Shown here piece by piece: positions 2,295-15,067 of a DNA stretch of 15,067 nucleotides (within the stretch, counting starts at the first letter, position 1; each line of letters begins with the position of its first letter). The notes beneath the pieces were generated by a model. It searched no databases and had not been told where the DNA came from. It worked only from the letters and a program-made list of their open reading frames with translations. The stretch comes from a virus. Lineage: Duplodnaviria; Heunggongvirae; Uroviricota; Caudoviricetes. The stretch lies in IMG/VR virus record IMGVR_UViG_2703718826_000001. One strand, written 5' to 3'. The translations under genes were made by a program, and so were the position numbers.

Positions 2295-2369
2295 GTCCTC
2301 TTAGTTAAATGGATATAACGAGCCCCTCCTAAGGGCTAATTGCAGGTTCGATTCCTGCAGGGGACACTT
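2295..2369 (+). tRNA. argW: tRNA-Arg (anticodon CCU)
   Basis: Cloverleaf readable by eye: acceptor GTCCTCT pairs with AGGGGAC, anticodon loop CTCCTAA, T-arm GGTTCGATTCC; matches E. coli argW from memory except the last two encoded nt are TT instead of CA (CCA end). Confidence 0.85.
2347..2367 (+). repeat. attL core: 21-bp direct repeat (3' end of argW)
   Basis: TTCGATTCCTGCAGGGGACAC is identical at 2347-2367 and 13946-13966; the first copy is the 3' end of the tRNA gene. Confidence 0.8.
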
Positions 2370-3857: not shown

Positions 3858-4739
3858 ATGCAGCATTCAACAGAGAATGAAACTATATTCTTAGGAAATC
3901 TATGGATTGACAAAAAAATACCACCATTAGAATATTGTTCATTTGAACGCGCTTCAAGACTATTAGAATGCGAGATTGATGATTTATTACACCTATACGA
4001 AATAGGCGCTTTTAATATCGCATTCAAGGCGGATGGACTTGCAGTTAGATTTAATGTTAATTTCCTCAATAAAAATCAGAAAATGGAAATTGACTTAATT
4101 CATCCCGTATTAACTAATCAATCACTAGAGATGGAGTTTTCAACAATATGGTATGACCTTAAAGATGATTCCTTTGAACATTTTGAAAATGGGCTTCAAA
4201 TTATAGGATTTGCCTGTGGTATTTGGTACGCCGATGATATGATAAGTGACATAAAAAATGGATTAGCTATAGATCCAGATTATGAATTCAGGCTTAAACC
4301 GGTAAAAATACGAGATAATGTTTTGATGGCAACGGCCTCATATGAAGGAAATAAGGTCATTGATATTCCATTTGAAGATCTTCTTATCATGCGAAGAGAT
4401 TTAGAGTTAATATGGAAATCAGTAAAAACTGGAATTCCTATGCCAAGTTTACTTACGAAAAGAATTTCATCTGAACCTAAAATCCCCAAGCGATTAAATA
4501 ACACTGCTGAGCATCATGCAAAAAATAGGGAGGGGTTATTAAATGCAGCCATATATATTTTAGCAAAATACCCAAGCGAATGTCGTGGTGAAAGAAAAGA
4601 GATAAGTCCTGAAAAGTGGACTAACGCCATAATTAAACATTTAGGAGAGCTACCTCCAATATTTATCACTAATGAACAAGAAATCTTAAGAAAATTACGA
4701 TTAGCGGTTAATCATGCGGGGTTAAAACAAAAGGGGTAG
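3858..4739 (+). CDS. hypothetical protein (AT-rich orphan cargo gene)
   Basis: 293-aa ORF; markedly AT-rich against GC-rich neighbours; no domain recognised. Confidence 0.6.
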   Translation: MQHSTENETIFLGNLWIDKKIPPLEYCSFERASRLLECEIDDLLHLYEIGAFNIAFKADGLAVRFNVNFLNKNQKMEIDLIHPVLTNQSLEMEFSTIWYDLKDDSFEHFENGLQIIGFACGIWYADDMISDIKNGLAIDPDYEFRLKPVKIRDNVLMATASYEGNKVIDIPFEDLLIMRRDLELIWKSVKTGIPMPSLLTKRISSEPKIPKRLNNTAEHHAKNREGLLNAAIYILAKYPSECRGERKEISPEKWTNAIIKHLGELPPIFITNEQEILRKLRLAVNHAGLKQKG

Positions 4740-9621: not shown

Positions 9622-9639
9622 TGTGCCAGCCACCACACA
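9622..9639 (+). promoter_or_regulatory. putative Ogr/Delta-type activator site (TGT-N12-ACA) of a late promoter
   Basis: TGT 9622-9624, 12-nt spacer, ACA 9637-9639, about 75-90 bp upstream of the Sid-like ATG (9712); AGGAG Shine-Dalgarno at 9702-9706. Confidence 0.25.
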
Positions 9640-9711
9640 CTGAGCACCGATAGTGTGCTTGTGTCAGCCACGACACAATTGACGTAACGAACCAACCCGA
9701 CAGGAGAAGTC

Positions 9712-10455
9712 ATGAACAACACCGCAGTGAATAACAACCTTTCCACTTTTCCGGCTGTAACGCAGCGGGCACTGGAAACCATGAACACAGCCAGAAACGC
9801 ATGGCTTGAAGCACGTCGTCAGCAGAAAGCGGCAGCGGATAATATTGCGACAATCCGCCAGCGTCGCGCTGAAATGGAAGCCACGACGAACACACTGAAT
9901 GAGGAGTGGCGCACGCTGTTTCGTGAAAGTCAGGGCGTGGTCTCAAAGGAAATGAAAAAACTGCGCACGGAAATTGCGCTGGGACGAGAAACGCTTGAGG
10001 ATTTTGATGAGCTGCTGGCGGCTCAGGAAAGCGAAAATGCACTTTTGCCGCAGAAAGCTGCGGAATTAGCCGGAAAGTATATCCACGCGCATAACATTCT
10101 TGTGGATATTCGCGCAAAACAAATCTGGGAAGATTTTATGCAGTCGCATGGAAAAGCGCTTATTCAGACGCTGAGCCTGCTTAAATCCACAATGGGCCGG
10201 GAAGCCAGTGCCGTTGTGGGTGTGGTGAATTCAGTTAATGACCCGGACACAGTGCTGAAAGACTTTATTCATAAACATATCACCAGACCGGCTCTGGCTA
10301 ACGATGCGATGCCTGAACAGGACCCGGTGTTTAAACTGGCGGGAGTTGCCCCGGATTATGCGGCGCGTCTGGATTTCAGTAATCAACTCTCTCCGGCAGC
10401 TATGCATAAAATAAAGGTTCGTCAGGAACTTGCTGAGAAGGAGAAAGCAGTATGA
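9712..10455 (+). CDS. Sid-like putative capsid size-determination (external scaffold) protein
   Basis: 247 aa, Ala/Glu/Lys/Leu-rich and presumably helical; size and position (first gene of the late operon, before the Psu-like gene) match P4 Sid; N-terminus resembles the Psu N-terminus as I recall it. Confidence 0.55.
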   Translation: MNNTAVNNNLSTFPAVTQRALETMNTARNAWLEARRQQKAAADNIATIRQRRAEMEATTNTLNEEWRTLFRESQGVVSKEMKKLRTEIALGRETLEDFDELLAAQESENALLPQKAAELAGKYIHAHNILVDIRAKQIWEDFMQSHGKALIQTLSLLKSTMGREASAVVGVVNSVNDPDTVLKDFIHKHITRPALANDAMPEQDPVFKLAGVAPDYAARLDFSNQLSPAAMHKIKVRQELAEKEKAV

Positions 10456-11003
10456 CGGCCCGAGGCACACCTGACCAGGCACTTACCAGTTTTCGGAATG
10501 CCCGTATTCTGTGGGCCGGACATAGTGAGAGCCGAAAAGCCGTTGAACAACAGATAACATCTCTCCTCGCTGCCACAGAAAAACCAGCAGATTATGCCCG
10601 ACAGCTCGAATTACTGCGGGAACGTCTGGATGTGCTGAAATGGCAAATTAACTGTGCTGCTCGGGAATGCATTTACTCGCAGCATTTATTGATGGAGGCC
10701 TGCACAGAAGCTGCTCTCAGCAATTTTATGCAGGCGAATGGGGCAGCCCTGACATCTGCACTGGCTCCGTTCCTGAAGGGGCGCGGAGGGGTTGACGTTG
10801 CGTCCCGTATATTACGCAGTGCTCTGGTTCGCCAGCTGGCAATAACACCGCCTGAAATTGCCGGGGATTATCGTGAGATCCTGGATGAATCCGGTTTGAT
10901 GCCAGACCCCGGGATGATTCGTGATTGCCAGGGCTCTTACACCCCGGCACAACATCTGCGTTTTCAGCAACGCCTGAATGACATTAACGATATACAGGAG
11001 TGA
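10452..11003 (+). CDS. psu: Psu-like polarity suppression / capsid decoration protein
   Basis: 183 aa; motifs KWQIN, FMQANGAALTSALAP and YTPAQ match my recollection of P4 Psu; AAGGAG upstream; start overlaps the previous stop (ATGA). Confidence 0.65.
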   Translation: MTARGTPDQALTSFRNARILWAGHSESRKAVEQQITSLLAATEKPADYARQLELLRERLDVLKWQINCAARECIYSQHLLMEACTEAALSNFMQANGAALTSALAPFLKGRGGVDVASRILRSALVRQLAITPPEIAGDYREILDESGLMPDPGMIRDCQGSYTPAQHLRFQQRLNDINDIQE

Positions 11004-11008
11004 TATTA

Positions 11009-11281
11009 ATGGCACTTAAATGTCCGGAATGCGGTACAGTTGCACACGCCAGAACAGCAGCCTATGAAGCTCCGTCAGTTAAACGCTCGTGGTATCAGTG
11101 CCAGAATCTGGAATGTTCCTGCACATTTACGGCACTGGAGAGTGTGGATAAGATAATCATGAAACCCCGGCGCAATGAACAGGAACCAGACAAATCACAA
11201 ACCCCGGTAAAACAACAGCAAACGCTCAATCGCTATGGCTCCGCGTCAAAACTGTCAAGCCGTCAGCAGATTCCTGTCTAA
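11009..11281 (+). CDS. Ogr/Delta-family zinc-finger late transcription activator
   Basis: CPECG...AHARTAAY...YQCQNLECSCTF...ESV closely resembles P2 Ogr (CPLC...AHARTSRY...YHQCQNVNCSATF...ESV); AGGAG 8 nt upstream of the ATG at 11009. Confidence 0.85.
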   Translation: MALKCPECGTVAHARTAAYEAPSVKRSWYQCQNLECSCTFTALESVDKIIMKPRRNEQEPDKSQTPVKQQQTLNRYGSASKLSSRQQIPV

Positions 11282-11304
11282 TTAGAAAAAAACGCCCACG
11301 TAAT

Positions 11305-11327
11305 CCCGGTCGAGTACCGGGATTTTT
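11305..11327 (+). terminator. rho-independent terminator after the late operon
   Basis: Stem CCCGGT 11305-11310 pairing with ACCGGG 11316-11321, loop CGAGT, followed by ATTTTT 11322-11327. Confidence 0.6.
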
Positions 11328-11766
11328 AACACCTTTTCCCTGGCTGGCCTGAGAGCGCATGAGTGCATGTCTATAGCGCATGAAAACGCATGAACCTTAT
11401 GCACCATTTTTGACGAGAAAGCCCTTGTGTGGTGGCTTCTGAGACGATTTATGAGGTGCATGAAAACCAGTCTGTTAAGCGAAGCGGGCAGGCGTGCGGG
11501 GCTGTTCGCATCAACATAAAAATAACGGGCTGATATAGTTATAAAATCAAATGAACTCTTTTAGTACGACATGGGTATGTGCGCCAGTAGCAACGTCAGC
11601 CCCCAAGCTTTCTATTGTTCTTTTCTGTTGTACCATCAATACGTACCGATTAGCTCCTAAGCATCAATATCAGTTTGAACGTATTGCTTTGAACTAATTT
11701 TTAGATGATTTTTTTCATTAAAAAATTATAATGTTGTAGATAAAAAGAGAATCTTATAGAGGCGTT

Positions 11767-12615
11767 ATGTCAAATAAAGTTGATGTTTTTTTGAGCCGAG
11801 TTAGCCATGTATCACAGTTTGTATTGGTGGCATTTGCTATTTTTGGATATTTTTATACAGTAAGACCAATTTACCAAAAGGAACTTTTATCAGAAGACAT
11901 TGCAAAAAAAGAAGTTGAATTAAATAAATTAAAAACTGCAATGGAAAACTCCCAAAAATTTATAGAGAATAATAAAATCTTACGAAAAGAATTGGAGGGA
12001 AGCATTGCCAAACTTGATTTACAATACAAAGAATCAGAAGAAAAATTAAATTCAATAAATTCTGAACTAAGAAAAACTTTAAATGAACTAAATAAACAAA
12101 AGACCATTGCCAAAAGAGCGGTCAATGCAAACAACAAGAATCTTGAATCTGTTTTCTGGGAGAATTTTTCGGGGCTAGTTGGAGTAGTTTATATTTCTAA
12201 GAGCACAGATTTTGTGAACAATACACTGGGTGACGCCAAAACAGCCTATAATACTCCTAGTAATTTATATATATCTCCTTATGATGCAATTAATGAAGCA
12301 TTAAAAAATGGCAATCATAACTTTATCTCAAGTTCAGAAAATGTCCCTGAAAATATCCGCAACAAAATTCTAGCAAAGATCCGTCGCGCTATTGAAAAAA
12401 ATAAGATTTCATTAACAAAAAAACCTATCGGTTTTGATGAAAAAATTAATAGTCTGATAAAAACTATAGAGTCAACTAAGTTACGCAAAAATGAAAACGA
12501 AATAATGAAAAATAACACTGCAGAAAGAGAACTATCATCTTATATTTTCCTGATAAATGGTCAATCAAGAATCCGCGCCATGGATTTCTTAAAAGACATT
12601 CAACATTTAGACTAA
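11767..12615 (+). CDS. hypothetical membrane-anchored coiled-coil protein (cargo gene A, candidate defence component)
   Basis: 282 aa; AGAGG 4 nt upstream of ATG; one N-terminal hydrophobic helix (VSQFVLVAFAIFGYFYTV) then a Lys/Glu/Asn-rich heptad-like region; strongly AT-rich; no known domain recognised. Confidence 0.75.
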   Translation: MSNKVDVFLSRVSHVSQFVLVAFAIFGYFYTVRPIYQKELLSEDIAKKEVELNKLKTAMENSQKFIENNKILRKELEGSIAKLDLQYKESEEKLNSINSELRKTLNELNKQKTIAKRAVNANNKNLESVFWENFSGLVGVVYISKSTDFVNNTLGDAKTAYNTPSNLYISPYDAINEALKNGNHNFISSSENVPENIRNKILAKIRRAIEKNKISLTKKPIGFDEKINSLIKTIESTKLRKNENEIMKNNTAERELSSYIFLINGQSRIRAMDFLKDIQHLD

Positions 12616-12631
12616 TATTGGATATCTTATA

Positions 12632-13336
12632 ATGAATACTAATACTAAATTTGATTTATGGTTGATTAGAGTAAGTTACATTGCCCAAGTTGGATTGTTT
12701 TTTTTGACAACCTTTACAATATTTTACACAGTAATTCCGATATACCAAAATGCAAATCTGCAGGAATCAATAGCAAAAAAAGAAATCGAATATAAACAAT
12801 TACAAGACAAAGAAAAAACTCTATATTTAAAGTTAAGAAAGGAATATTCAAGAAAATATGTTGTTGATGCAATCTCCCAATGTTCTCCAACAGAAATACT
12901 TATGCGTCAACCATCTGAAGATGACAGTAAAAAATCACATGATGTAAGAATGAAGGAATTAAAAACATTTTTAAACAAAGATATAACCAGTTGCTTTGAA
13001 AAAACTTTTTATAGCAACCCTTACATTAAGGAATTAAGAGACACTGATCAACAAAATATTCTTGTTAAAATTAAAAATTTATCCCCCTCTATAACTAAAC
13101 TACATGAAAAATATAAAGCAGAATTTGATGACGATAGCAAGTTATTGAATACTGGAAAAGAAAAATCGACAAGATTAAAAGAGGTGGAAGATTATTTAAT
13201 AGGAATAGGAGGTTACACAGAAAACAGCAAAAAGGATTTTGAAAACTCATACATAGAATCTGGAGCATATGACTTGGTTGTAAGGTATGGTTTTGAAGTC
13301 AACGATCTATTTTCCAAAACCATCAGAGACAATTAA
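12632..13336 (+). CDS. hypothetical membrane-anchored protein, N-terminal paralogue of gene A (cargo gene B)
   Basis: 234 aa; begins 16 bp after gene A; N-terminal helix (IAQVGLFFLTTFTIFYTV) and the FYTV-PIYQ ... IAKKE motif shared with gene A; divergent C-terminus. Confidence 0.75.
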   Translation: MNTNTKFDLWLIRVSYIAQVGLFFLTTFTIFYTVIPIYQNANLQESIAKKEIEYKQLQDKEKTLYLKLRKEYSRKYVVDAISQCSPTEILMRQPSEDDSKKSHDVRMKELKTFLNKDITSCFEKTFYSNPYIKELRDTDQQNILVKIKNLSPSITKLHEKYKAEFDDDSKLLNTGKEKSTRLKEVEDYLIGIGGYTENSKKDFENSYIESGAYDLVVRYGFEVNDLFSKTIRDN

Positions 13337-13347
13337 TTAGGTGAACA

Positions 13348-13377
13348 ACCTCCTCTATTTTAATTAATAGAGGAGGT
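13348..13377 (+). terminator. perfect 12-bp stem-loop 3' of cargo gene B (putative terminator or RNA-stabilising hairpin)
   Basis: ACCTCCTCTATT 13348-13359, loop TTAATT, AATAGAGGAGGT 13366-13377; begins 12 nt after the stop; no clean U-tract follows. Confidence 0.45.
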
Positions 13378-13872
13378 GCTTAAATTATAAAAACATTTCA
13401 GGTTTGATTTAGATAACACGCAAATAAAAAACAAACTAATGAAATATATAAATTAATTCTTAGGTATAAAATGTTACAATTAGAATATATTTAATTTTTA
13501 ACTTTAAATCATGATAAATCTAAAAGTAAGCACCCAAAAAACCTTCAAAACACAATACGTCGTGTCTCAACCCCATGGTATTTAGGGTTAAACCAAGTTA
13601 TAGCGCTGACTGGTGAGCGGTTTGAAGTCATTCTGGTATACATAAAATGAAAAAATACATTGGGAGATATACCCCTGACTTACAGAGCTGGTAACGGTTA
13701 CCAAGTCGCATTGTGTAATGCGTGGGGTGTAAAATTTTTTGGGTATTTTTTATCCAGTAGCAGGTTAGCCTGCCCCCCCTGCTCCTAACGTTCTTTCATT
13801 CCTCTTTTCATCATTTTTAGAACGATATAAACAGATGGATCTCTATGGTTTTAATGAGTCGATTTTATCGTC

Positions 13873-13893
13873 TGATGGTATCCATGATGGTAC
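13873..13893 (+). promoter_or_regulatory. putative integrase arm-type sites at the attR end
   Basis: TGATGGTAT 13873-13881 and TGATGGTAC 13885-13893, same motif and 12-bp spacing as at 2481-2502. Confidence 0.45.
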
Positions 13894-13945
13894 CTAAGAG
13901 AGAAAATAAAAAATAATACTTAAAAAACATGAAATTATAAATACT

Positions 13946-13966
13946 TTCGATTCCTGCAGGGGACAC
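13946..13966 (+). repeat. attR core: 21-bp direct repeat (partial tRNA 3' end); probably also the attL of the next island
   Basis: Identical to 2347-2367; here followed by CA (13967-13968), i.e. the canonical tRNA CCA end. Confidence 0.8.
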
Positions 13967-14143
13967 CATGCACACCTCTCCTGAAATCTACCATACCCCA
14001 CAAAAAGCCTTTATAATCAGCACATACCCTTACTTATGTTACTCAAATAGTCGCCTTAATTCTCCTCAGGGGAACGTAAATCAAGTCACATTTGGGGGCC
14101 TATTTAGGGGCACATCTTGGTCAATCTATTGCGAGGCCCCCAG

Positions 14144-15067
14144 ATGCCACTGACAGCTCGACAAGTTGAAACAGCCAAACCCAAAGATAAAATTTATAAG
14201 ATTGCCGATGGTGGTGGGCTCTACCTTCAGGTCAATCCTAACGGCTCAAAGTACTGGCGAATGAAGTACCACTATGCGGGGAAGGAAAAGAAACTATCAT
14301 TTGGCACCTATCCAACTATTACATTGGCTGAAGCTCGCAAACGTCGGGATGAAGCCAAGAAAATACATGCCGATGGTAAAGATCCCGGTGAAGTCAAGAA
14401 AGCTGAAAATCTTGAGAAAAACCTTTCCGAAGGAAGAACTTTTGCCGCAATCGCCACCGAGTGGTACAACGCAAAAGTTTCAGGCTGGTCTGCCAGCTAC
14501 GCTGATTATGTCGACAGAGCATTCAAAAATAATGTGTTTCCCTACATTGGAAACAGACCCATTAGTGAAATCGAACCTCTTGAACTTCTCGCAGTTCTTC
14601 AGCGTATCGAAAGCCGAGGAGCCTGCGAGCTAGCTAATAAAGTTCGCCAACGATGTGGTGAAGTGTTTCGGTATGCCATTGTTACAGGTCGGGCACGATA
14701 CAATCCAGCTTCTGATCTGGTTATAGCAATGAAAAGCTATAAGCGAACACATTACCCTTTCCTGCTTCCTCCTGAACTACCAGAGTTTTTATACAAACTC
14801 GAAAACTACACCGGCAGTATTGTAACCCGTGAAGCTACAAAATTGTTGATGCTCACAGGGCTGAGAACAGTAGAATTACGTATGGGGGAATGGTGTGAGA
14901 TCGATTTTACCCAAAAGATATGGGAAGTTCCTCCGACCCGGATGAAAATGAGGAAGGAGCATATCGTCCCTCTGTCAGATCAGGCAATCCAGTCTCTGCA
15001 AATCCTCAAAGAACTGACTGGAAGATACAGATACATCTTTGCCGGAATGGATTTGCCCCTATATTTC
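14144..15067 (+). CDS. second P4-type tyrosine integrase, 3'-truncated by the window end
   Basis: Hand translation from ATG 14144 gives MPLTARQVETAKPKDKIYKIADGGGLYLQVNPNGSKYWRMKYHYAGKEKKLSFGTYP...LTGLRTVELRMGEWCEIDF... with no stop to 15067 (308 codons); N-terminus parallels the first integrase; absent from the ORF track for lack of a stop codon. Confidence 0.85.
   Translation, partial: MPLTARQVETAKPKDKIYKIADGGGLYLQVNPNGSKYWRMKYHYAGKEKKLSFGTYPTITLAEARKRRDEAKKIHADGKDPGEVKKAENLEKNLSEGRTFAAIATEWYNAKVSGWSASYADYVDRAFKNNVFPYIGNRPISEIEPLELLAVLQRIESRGACELANKVRQRCGEVFRYAIVTGRARYNPASDLVIAMKSYKRTHYPFLLPPELPEFLYKLENYTGSIVTREATKLLMLTGLRTVELRMGEWCEIDFTQKIWEVPPTRMKMRKEHIVPLSDQAIQSLQILKELTGRYRYIFAGMDLPLYF

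Follow-up and report, generated by a model that had tools for sequence, protein, structure and literature searches.

We describe two adjacent genes, here called A and B, which a P4-like satellite in E. coli carries as exchangeable cargo in a slot associated with defence, and which encode predicted single-pass inner-membrane proteins that are a good candidate for a defence acting at the cell envelope. The window, by which we mean the whole stretch of DNA analysed, comprises 15,067 nucleotides of the virus record IMGVR_UViG_2703718826_000001. We are nearly certain that A and B form a real, co-functional membrane pair, and an anti-phage function, argued from genomic context and guilt by association, is reasonably likely. 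The full reading, in which an envelope-level anti-phage pair with periplasmic heads would block genome entry, is offered tentatively, its chances falling somewhat short of even. A and B belong to no described family.

Gene A (11767..12615, + strand) encodes 282 aa and is identical or near-identical to RefSeq WP_000066845, while gene B (12632..13336, + strand) encodes the 234 aa of WP_001095698; both entries are annotated as 'hypothetical protein'. The two genes are co-directional and 16 bp apart, as an earlier, sequence-only reading of this DNA had described them, and the expression signals it had pointed out were found at the positions given. A Shine-Dalgarno-like AGAGG (11758..11762, + strand) lies 4 nt 5' of the ATG of A, and a candidate -10 hexamer, TATAAT, is located at 11727..11732 (+ strand). 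The hexamer is accompanied by a weak -35, and the consensus promoter scan was silent on it because a good -35 is absent; the count of promoter-like sites in the region was not above that in shuffled sequences. A perfect 12-bp hairpin (13348..13377, + strand; arms 13348-13359 and 13366-13377) lies 12 nt 3' of the stop codon of B and was confirmed with a folding energy of -21.4 kcal/mol (z = -5.9), and the terminator scan made no call there because the hairpin has no U-tract. Two TGT-N12-ACA boxes of the Ogr/Delta type are present upstream of sid (9622-9677) and none was found upstream of A. An Ogr/Delta late promoter driving A and B was dropped as a candidate, the boxes being solely 5' of sid.

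The genes have been maintained as coding sequences by purifying selection. Compared with the Salmonella orthologues, dN/dS is 0.12 for A and 0.125 for B, and the reading frames are neither disrupted nor unconserved, since length, order and frame are kept from 84% down to about 36% identity; gene artefacts were rejected as an explanation on these grounds. The earlier description of an operon-like pair also held across Enterobacterales, with B always following A in the cassettes examined. The A-then-B arrangement occurs in satellites of Salmonella (84% identity) and Enterobacter (51%), next to an integrase gene in Cronobacter and in one Logan contig, beside a NACHT/STAND NTPase in Klebsiella, and in a contig (L014) with genes for HNH, PAAR-pyocin S toxin, colicin-immunity and CdiI proteins. 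Divergence of A correlates with that of B (r = 0.96 over 28 pairs from 8 cassettes). Searches by tblastn with A and B gave 0 matches in 50,697 GenBank phage genomes, and in the plasmid collection two weak matches to the N-terminal module only.

The element carrying the pair is a P4-like satellite integrated at argW, and both Pfam and the RefSeq annotation of an identical locus confirm its integrase, primase, Sid-like, Psu and Ogr/Delta genes. The Pfam matches were Phage_integrase, a Toprim_3/DUF927 primase, Psu (1.5e-44) and Ogr_Delta (7e-16), and the Sid-like reading frame gave a weak Psu match. The sole Rfam match within the window is tRNA-Arg(CCU) (argW, 2295-2367), the 3' end of which contains attL, represented by the 21-bp core TTCGATTCCTGCAGGGGACAC (2347..2367, + strand). 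An exact copy of this core at 13946..13966 (+ strand) forms attR, where the satellite ends on its right side; from 13946 onwards the sequence is again homologous to the argW flank of other E. coli genomes. The integrase gene is situated at the opposite end of the prophage, and the cargo slot from psu/delta to int therefore spans att. Conserved satellite DNA 3' of delta (11282..11510, + strand) includes a hairpin-plus-T terminator-like site near 11305-11327, presumably holds the cos-proximal region, and ends at the left cargo junction. A 19-mer of the P2/P4 cos site gave 0 matches in the window with up to 3 mismatches allowed, and region 11000-11700 was without a blastn match in the phage collection.

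Between delta and attR lies the variable cargo block (11511..13945, + strand), with 30.4% G+C. The sequence-only reading had called this DNA compositionally foreign from two sampled 60-nt lines; the counts of 19 and 38 G+C were reproduced exactly, and G+C is 0.27-0.32 over 11600-13600 versus 0.56-0.62 in the primase (59% overall). The sid-psu-delta flank is common to 1,052 complete E. coli genomes, and this cargo accompanies it in only 7, or 7 of the 5,426 complete E. coli genomes searched. At the left junction, sid-psu-delta homology breaks off at 11504-11511 in about 1,045 E. coli genomes, and the whole cargo block aligns with that of a Salmonella satellite (L037) at 77% identity. Comparison of the slot across related satellites showed that the cargo is truly swapped, as had been anticipated: a flank that is 98.7% identical, in strain N1286 (L011), carries IetA and IetS in this slot instead (PADLOC E = 1.5e-79 and 4e-45), and EDL933 (L012) has a different multi-gene cargo there. 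The interval from psu/delta to int/att in P4-like satellites was reportedly described as a defence hotspot, adjacent to cos, by Rousset et al. in 2022. The cargo studied here shares with such a hotspot a P4-like element, a position between psu/delta and int, variable content, and a defence system in a sister element. Defence systems are abundant in P4 hotspots (PMC9122126), and in a preprint 6 of 8 unknown P4 loci chosen at random were phage-protective (10.64898/2026.02.27.708500).

The location beside the late genes sid-psu-delta would also suit a role in the satellite's own life cycle, in which A and B would tune lysis or envelope steps of the helper, in a spanin-like or lysis-timing manner, for satellite release and not for defence of the host. 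An N-terminal TM helix followed by a periplasmic coiled coil is reminiscent of Rz, and a noise-level match to an Rz-like PHROG was obtained (E = 0.006). We consider such a role extremely unlikely, because a gene pair present in 7 of 1,052 flank-sharing E. coli genomes has no core function in the satellite, and because the cassette is not confined to satellites, being found also in a Klebsiella island, on plasmids and in islands that have no satellite genes. Neither a lipoprotein partner, an endolysin nor a holin was found, and the TGT-N12-ACA box is missing 5' of A. The Rz-like match itself was discarded, as only the coiled coil was covered.

Both proteins have the single hydrophobic segment attributed to them by the sequence-only reading, and the heptad-like stretch was confirmed in A. 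AlphaFold2 models contain one long helix, spanning residues 4-153 in A and 6-84 in B. In the predicted layout of A, a short tail in the cytoplasm leads into a single TM helix, which is followed by a long helical stalk (about 120 residues) and, at about 159-280, by a helical head; B has the same architecture, with a helical stalk of about 50 residues and a helical head. What had been overlooked is that A and B, judged by their sequences, are paralogues that share a nearly invariant N-terminal membrane module. The A-type module (aa 1-50; 11767..11916, + strand) is composed of D..L.R.SH.SQ, the TM helix and FGYFYTVRPIYQKELLSEDIAKKE, and the B-type module (aa 1-52; 12632..12787, + strand) is paralogous to it (49% identity over 53 residues, E = 1e-12). 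Among 25 homologues the A-type module has a mean identity of 84%, versus 39-42% in the remainder of A, and a dN/dS of 0.03; for the B-type module the values are 80% among B homologues and 0.017. Stalks and heads of both proteins diverge fast, in contrast to the module.

The heads are quite likely periplasmic, with an N-in/C-out orientation, a prediction based on a charge bias, a bias towards even numbers of cysteines, and the invariant cysteines of B. Mean net charge over 131 family representatives is +3.6 in the N-terminal tail versus -0.7 in the stretch of 15 residues that follows the TM helix. Beyond the helix, 97 of these representatives have 2 or 4 cysteines, 11 have 1 or 3, and 23 have none. 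In B, Cys84 (codon 12881..12883, + strand) and Cys121 (codon 12992..12994, + strand) are kept in 16 of 16 B-type sequences, from which the head is probably held by a disulfide. The predicted topology leaves only about 15 residues of each protein in the cytoplasm, and as A and B would be almost wholly periplasmic, any sensing would have to occur in the envelope.

The module also defines a large family that is without Pfam or PADLOC annotation and that was likewise missed before. Its motif is D.WL.R.SH.SQ, a TM helix, and FGYFYTVxPxYQKxLLxExIAKKE (core FYTVxPxYQ..L.E.IAKKE). The module profile matched 516 clusters at E<=1e-10 and 746 at E<=1e-3, with scores of 114.7 bits for A and 104.6 bits for B, and the module is N-terminal in 150 of 150 among the matches listed. 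A and B conform to the family pattern, an N-terminal module in a protein of 200-330 aa followed by a variable helical region. Pfam searches found no domain beyond coiled-coil noise in any of 116 family members, and two members matched the DivIC model (best E = 9.8e-6). Members are distributed over Proteobacteria, Desulfobacterota, Bacteroidota and others; solo members are common, and natural chimeras exist in which heads and modules have already been swapped. Scanning GTDB with strict back-translated patterns gave 10 confirmed loci in 100,044 species genomes, a number unusable as a prevalence estimate because the patterns were strict. When the short module profile was used in a word-indexed homology search, the matches were all fragments of <=103 aa and carried no names.

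Mobile elements recur among the neighbourhoods of the family. A member lies directly 3' of the integrase gene in 186/P2-like prophages (L033, L034), and another between the large terminase and integrase genes of a prophage that encodes a lambda P-type replication protein (L036). A Burkholderia plasmid has a solo member next to both an integrase and IetAS, a member in a Klebsiella indica element adjoins a primase, and some solo members adjoin STAND NTPases. Several family neighbourhoods contain interbacterial toxin/immunity genes instead of phage defence genes. In Desulfovibrionales, distant solo members are found amid housekeeping genes, and one follows an RND pump at a distance of 20 bp; the family may for this reason have a general envelope role.

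A housekeeping explanation would take the family to be an envelope one, comparable to the stress-sensing or scaffold pairs PspB/PspC or FtsB/FtsL, that became mobile in enterobacteria and has no part in conflict. The Desulfovibrionales members amid core genes are consistent with it, as are the DivIC matches and a weak, non-significant similarity of B to PspC (E = 0.097). It is nevertheless very unlikely for A and B, given their patchy distribution (7 of 5,426 E. coli genomes, and the few loci recovered by the strict GTDB patterns), their AT-rich foreign composition, and the recurrence of family members beside integrases, satellites and defence genes.

Toxin genes in some neighbourhoods would fit interbacterial competition as the function, with A and B protecting, for example, against toxins that act on the membrane or in the periplasm (colicins, pyocins, CDI, Rhs or T6SS effectors) rather than against phage, and hitch-hiking in the cargo slots of mobile elements. 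The member in contig L014 lies near colicin-immunity, PAAR-pyocin S toxin and CdiI genes, and further members have as neighbours a CdiA-type filamentous haemagglutinin that includes a PT-VENN domain (L020), an RHS toxin (L029) and RES toxins (L007 and L030). A periplasmic location would suit immunity to envelope-acting toxins. However, no toxin gene is found beside A and B in the satellites, whereas immunity genes are normally directly 3' of the cognate toxin gene, and the slot is a documented phage-defence hotspot in which the sister element has IetAS. We therefore judge this explanation improbable, though less so than the housekeeping one.

The sequence-only reading had recognised no known domain in either protein, and wider searches agree with it: Pfam, NCBIfam, PHROGs and PADLOC yielded only coiled-coil noise, such as SMC at E = 7e-6, far below the cut-off of that model. 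In PADLOC-DB v2 the best match of A was LeoB (E = 0.34) and B gave nothing. Fold searches with A and B, which had been proposed as a check, provided no link to any known system, and A and B profiles compared with PDB sequences produced nothing below E = 0.01. The accessions WP_000066845 and WP_001095698 are absent from all literature searchable as full text and from the searched supplements of Rousset 2022 and DefensePredictor, and DNA words of A and B are absent among the synthesised sequences of the 2026 P4 study (10.64898/2026.02.27.708500). The new P4 systems Crouga, Bandua, Aernus, Toga, Reve and Hailong bear no resemblance to the pair, and a literature keyword search did not find a described equivalent.

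How might such a pair act against phage? A could pair with B through the conserved membrane-proximal modules, as in other single-pass coiled-coil pairs, although this is speculative. The variable periplasmic heads may then bind a component of the incoming phage to which the periplasm gives access (for example tail tip, tape measure or ejection proteins), which is equally speculative, and with that component bound the genome-delivery conduit would fail to form at the inner membrane. The outcome would be superinfection exclusion, the cell being spared rather than killed, again as a matter of speculation. An entry block of this kind is possible as the mode, with a probability clearly below one half.

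The alternative mode is the abortive-infection-like one favoured by the sequence-only reading, which turned out to be an assumption that is not specifically supported; the predicted topology puts nearly all of A and B in the periplasm. Here the heads would sense a phage component or envelope damage, and the TM helices would oligomerise into a lesion, collapse the membrane potential and kill or arrest the cell; in a variant, one paralogue may restrain the other as in a holin/antiholin pair. The slot and neighbourhood evidence applies equally to this mode, and the module is more conserved than an anchor requires, with an invariant Gln (Gln17), an invariant Pro (Pro34), and aromatic and small residues. 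The architecture is also like that of T4 holin T and antiholin RI, with a single TM helix, a periplasmic domain and a disulfide. TM proteins are regarded as suicide effectors in many defence systems (PMC9122126). The TM proteins of the DS-numbered DefensePredictor systems compared are dissimilar to A and B (<=8.5 bits). Members without a partner are frequent, which is hard to square with a toxin needing an antagonist and argues against the idea that a family member is a pore of constitutive toxicity requiring an antidote. A and B are not accompanied by an endolysin or a regulator, and the sequence identifies no pore. On balance cell killing is unlikely, and less likely than an entry block, which fits the evidence at least as well.

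The module can be recognised across phyla and is nearly invariant (dN/dS 0.02-0.03), a hint that it has an active role in the membrane for which a simple blocker would have no need; to our knowledge, exclusion proteins seldom have a membrane anchor as conserved as this. It is conceivable, though we would call it doubtful, that the superfamily of at least 500 clusters constitutes a new class of envelope-level immunity, with A and B as the first members examined. Heads that evolve fast and are interchangeable would serve as periplasmic receptors, coupled to a near-invariant TM/juxtamembrane 'engine', and phage would be detected before or during genome entry, either by a solo protein or by a pair of paralogues with unequal stalks.

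In almost all characterised bacterial defence systems that we know of, infection is sensed in the cytoplasm, and the very few that we know to act at the inner membrane or in the periplasm are largely exclusion proteins, single and phage-specific. If A and B are protective, they would represent a modular envelope-level system in which a conserved membrane module carries swappable periplasmic heads, and a function could be assigned to >500 unannotated protein clusters. They would also offer a handle on the phage components that are exposed in the periplasm at genome delivery, and would show that a P4 slot lying against att, not int, is missed by psu-to-int searches. If they are not protective, they remain a clear example of a widespread membrane module that lacks annotation, for which interbacterial competition or envelope biology are the leads.

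Several known systems share parts of this architecture. The Rz spanin and the T4 holin T/antiholin RI combine an N-terminal TM helix, a periplasmic helical domain and disulfides, and the T4 pair responds to a periplasmic signal from a superinfecting phage. The predicted architecture of A has the N-terminal TM helix and periplasmic coiled coil of an inner-membrane spanin, but B does not look like a spanin partner, its N-terminus being of the uncleaved-anchor type and its first Cys at residue 84. No lysis genes were found in the element or in the other A/B contexts examined, neither sequence nor fold gave a significant match to Rz or T4 T/RI, and the A/B cassette occurs outside phages. FtsB/FtsL and PspB/PspC are small N-in/C-out single-pass proteins that pair via the TM helix and a membrane-proximal coiled coil. 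Matches to FtsB/FtsL (DivIC-type) and PspB/PspC are weak and limited to the TM/coiled-coil region; these proteins are core, vertically inherited and have much shorter periplasmic parts, whereas A and B, whose heads are large and variable, are a rare cargo of mobile elements.

Among defence systems, IetAS, reportedly a system of Gao et al. 2020, is an unrelated ATPase-plus-protease, presumably cytoplasmic, and is relevant solely as a slot-mate of A and B. Closer in form are the DefensePredictor systems DS-13 (E. coli; WP_000387046 + WP_001022716) and the single-gene DS-40 and DS-43, whose DS numbers are given in the supplementary tables of PMC13092281. They encode, as A and B do, only small helical proteins, which have TM segments at the N-terminus and show no enzymatic domain that could be recognised, and DS-13, with two genes that encode membrane proteins only, is the nearest analogue that we found in the defence literature. 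They are not homologous, however: profiles of A, B and the module score <=8.5 bits against them, and the FYTVxPxYQ module is absent.

Superinfection-exclusion proteins of prophages offer a parallel to the entry block that we tentatively prefer. HK97 gp15 and T4 Imm and Sp are inner-membrane proteins of this kind, in addition to SieA. The SieA protein of P22 blocks genome delivery by disturbing the periplasmic/membrane conduit of ejection proteins, and its sequence types are very divergent (PMC10461980). Exclusion proteins are, like A and B, small, encoded by mobile elements, located in the inner membrane and expressed in the lysogen, and members of the A/B family have comparable positions beside the integrase at a prophage end. 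On the predicted topology, A and B share with them an inner-membrane location in which the functional part is exposed to the periplasm or membrane. By sequence they are unrelated, neither A nor B having a tblastn match in the 50,697 phage genomes, and A and B are two paralogues versus one protein. Unlike the exclusion proteins, A and B combine a long coiled-coil stalk with a near-invariant TM module that recurs in >500 clusters.

The element in the window is a P4-like satellite inserted at argW. It has the order tRNA-Arg(CCU), integrase, primase, Sid-like ORF, Psu, Ogr/Delta and cargo, with the tRNA (2295-2367) at the left end and copies of a 21-bp att repeat at 2347 and 13946. Two cargo ORFs, A (11767-12615, 282 aa) and B (12632-13336, 234 aa), lie 16 bp apart on the plus strand, as the sequence-only reading had placed them. 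Its claim of foreign composition also holds: G+C is 0.27-0.32 across about 11600-13600 versus 0.56-0.62 in the primase, and the two 60-nt lines sampled earlier recount to exactly 19 and 38 G+C. The signals it described are present as well, with AGAGG four nt 5' of the ATG of A and TATAAT at 11727-11732. The latter has a poor -35, and promoter-like sites in the AT-rich stretch around A/B are not more numerous than in shuffles. B is closed by the perfect 12-bp hairpin reported earlier (arms 13348-13359 and 13366-13377; -21.4 kcal/mol on folding, z = -5.9), which lacks a U-tract and is thus not a textbook intrinsic terminator. From the hairpin to attR run about 570 bp of AT-rich DNA (13378-13945), without any ORF of at least 50 aa or Rfam match, nonetheless alignable to the Salmonella satellite inside a 77%-identical block.

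Just 5' of the Sid-like ORF (start 9712), TGT-N12-ACA inverted-repeat boxes at 9622-9639 and 9660-9677 on the plus strand match the Ogr/Delta-activated late-promoter pattern. The whole window contains six such matches, a chance level since 35 of 200 shuffles gave six or more, and the stretch from delta to gene A has none. Directly 3' of the integrase is an AT-rich ORF of 293 aa (3858-4739, plus strand, G+C about 0.30-0.35) with no match in Pfam or PADLOC. Only its residues 14-56 align (51% identity) to the equivalently placed ORF of the Salmonella satellite, which has 292 aa, though the integrases of the two satellites are 86% identical; the window ORF seems to be a second variable gene, its N-terminus conserved and its C-terminus swapped. 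Right of attR, 13946-14600 matches other E. coli DNA adjoining tRNA-Arg, under an annotated tyrosine recombinase, which suggests that argW holds tandem or decayed islands.

The position between delta and attR is an exchangeable cargo slot, and a defence slot. When 9700-14600 was compared by megablast with 5,426 complete E. coli genomes, the sid-psu-delta flank was present in 1,052, and in all but seven of these homology ended at 11504-11511 of the window, the chromosomal match returning from 13946. Over 11650-13400 the seven cargo-bearing genomes match the window at 99.8% identity or more. The satellite of E. coli N1286 has a 98.7%-identical flank, and its A/B position (L011 8929-12375) is taken by an ATPase and an S8 protease that PADLOC identifies as IetA and IetS (E = 1.5e-79 and 4e-45), while EDL933 carries another multi-gene cargo between delta and int. 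Same-slot comparison thereby bears out the cargo swapping raised by the earlier reading. This region of P4-like satellites is reported to be a defence hotspot (PMC9122126), and six of eight unknown P4 loci chosen at random were reported as phage-protective (2026 preprint, 10.64898/2026.02.27.708500). A defensive outcome for unknown cargo is expected there. The 2022 search took the stretch between psu and int, over no more than ten genes (PMC9122126). In this satellite lineage the slot abuts attR because the integrase is at the other prophage end, and judging from that method text such a search would probably miss it. The Enterobacter hormaechei satellite (L002) has two cargo positions: its A-B pair is placed after the primase and a second Ogr/Delta gene, and a 1,034-aa SIR2 + STAND NTPase protein is encoded on the far side of psu (1-1421).

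A and B are real genes, paired and paralogous. A word-indexed protein search returned 58 relatives for A and 17 for B, all from Enterobacterales and all without a name, and the A-then-B order recurs with a spacing of 10-31 bp or a slight overlap. Cassettes were found in Salmonella satellites (84% identity, same layout, different chromosomal site), an Enterobacter satellite (51%), a Cronobacter integrase/Ogr remnant (42%), a Klebsiella island where the pair adjoins a 979-aa NACHT/STAND NTPase, a contig where it adjoins an integrase fragment, and a contig also bearing HNH, PAAR-pyocin and immunity genes. Pairwise identities of A correlate with those of B (r = 0.96, 28 pairs from eight cassettes). 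Compared with their Salmonella orthologues, A has a dN/dS of 0.12 and B one of 0.125, and the entire 2.7-kb cargo, including non-coding DNA, aligns to the Salmonella element at 77% identity.

The paralogy resides in an N-terminal module: residues 4-56 of A and 6-58 of B are 49% identical (BLASTP, E = 1e-12), and nothing else in the two proteins aligns. Mean identity of the first ~50 residues is 84% among A and 80% among B proteins versus 35-42% for the remainder, and dN/dS is 0.02-0.03 in the module versus 0.15-0.16 in the heads. The module runs from a short polar tail (D..L.R.SH.SQ) through a single hydrophobic helix into a membrane-proximal helix, which reads FGYFYTVRPIYQKELLSEDIAKKE in A and FTIFYTVIPIYQNANLQESIAKKE in B. 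It defines a large family without annotation; an exhaustive profile search of 1.84 billion representative proteins matched 746 clusters at E<=1e-3 and 516 at E<=1e-10. Among the best 150 matches the module is always N-terminal, in proteins mostly of 200-330 aa, and 116 diverse members have no Pfam domain beyond coiled-coil-type noise. Natural chimeras with an A-type module and a B-type head occur as solo proteins, lacking a paralogue partner (P0049 from Pectobacterium, P0050 and P0051 from two contigs), so module and head are separable units. The Pectobacterium polaris chimera (L007 8001-8708), P0050 and P0051 have 235-245 aa and cysteine-containing heads, and the L007 gene adjoins a RES-domain toxin gene.

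AlphaFold2 models of both proteins are all-helical and confident (mean pLDDT 86.4 for A, 87.7 for B), and fold searches with them gave no meaningful match. A is modelled as one unbroken helix (residues 4-153) followed by a helical domain (159-280), and B as a helix (6-84) followed by a helical domain. The stalk past the membrane segment thus has a length of roughly 120 residues in A and 50 in B, which would hold the heads at different heights if the stalks are extended. Each protein has one hydrophobic segment, in agreement with the earlier reading. Across 131 family representatives, the tail preceding this segment averages 5.6 Lys/Arg versus 2.0 Asp/Glu (net +3.6), and the 15 residues past it average a net charge of -0.7. 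Past the helix, 97 representatives have two or four cysteines, 11 have one or three, and 23 none. B has exactly two, C84 and C121, invariant in 16 of 16 B-type sequences, with surrounding sequence down to about 30% identity. Membrane proteins follow the positive-inside rule, and exported bacterial proteins are biased to even cysteine numbers; together these strongly indicate a cytoplasmic N-tail and a periplasmic stalk and head, the latter part probably often disulfide-bonded across the family. With only about 15 residues facing the cytoplasm, detection or action would have to occur in the membrane or periplasm. Paralogy, the family-defining module and periplasmic topology are additions to the earlier claims.

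Solo members lie directly 3' of the integrase in two 186/P2-like prophages (L033 and L034 from IMG/VR, about 9970-10774), which also carry CI and CII(CP76) genes, and between the large terminase and integrase genes of a prophage encoding a lambda P-type replication protein (L036 9932-10963). In a Klebsiella indica element a family member adjoins the primase. A solo member on bpln_1p, a conjugative plasmid of Burkholderia plantarii, is flanked by a site-specific integrase and by IetA/IetS (L030 6974-11468), the same kind of system as in the slot of E. coli N1286. Contexts in enterobacteria and prophages suggest conflict functions carried on mobile elements; the contexts of distant solo members do not, Desulfovibrionales members residing among ordinary chromosomal genes, one of them 20 bp 3' of an RND pump. 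Neither A nor B had a tblastn match in 50,697 GenBank phage genomes. Some members stand beside RES, RHS or CdiA-type toxin genes, and several family neighbourhoods contain toxin and immunity genes, which makes a role in interbacterial competition a serious rival to phage defence.

The reading to which we commit is an envelope-level anti-phage system acting at or before genome entry; its anti-phage role is inferred from context only. A and B would pair via the conserved module, and their variable heads would bind to a component that the phage exposes in the periplasm, so that the genome-delivery conduit would not form or not function. Pairing, phage target and exclusion instead of killing are speculative. 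The sequence-only reading favoured abortive infection at the membrane, for which the conservation of the TM module, suggesting an active membrane role, is the main argument. That label is not specifically supported, and we rank exclusion above it because solo members are common, which speaks against a toxin requiring an antidote, because neither a regulator nor a cytoplasmic sensor is present, and because family members adjoin the integrase at prophage ends, a typical position of exclusion genes. A/B makes a strong candidate for experiment, cheap to follow up and unusual in its place in the cell.

The earlier view of A/B as undescribed hotspot cargo is supported, the slot being swapped and the pair belonging to none of the described systems tested. 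FtsB/FtsL, PspB/PspC, the inner-membrane spanin Rz and the T4 holin T with its antiholin RI are analogous in architecture; as a spanin the pair falls short in two respects, the lipoprotein partner and the lysis cassette. Among recently described defence systems the nearest analogue is DefensePredictor DS-13, two genes for small TM-only proteins sharing no sequence with A/B. Among functional analogues, exclusion proteins of the inner membrane come nearest; P22 SieA, for example, acts by interfering with the conduit of ejection proteins (PMC10461980). Proteins of this type are single and have no sequence in common with either A or B. Defence at the genome-injection site is known in E. coli from SNIPE (PMC13190303), but SNIPE is a nuclease.
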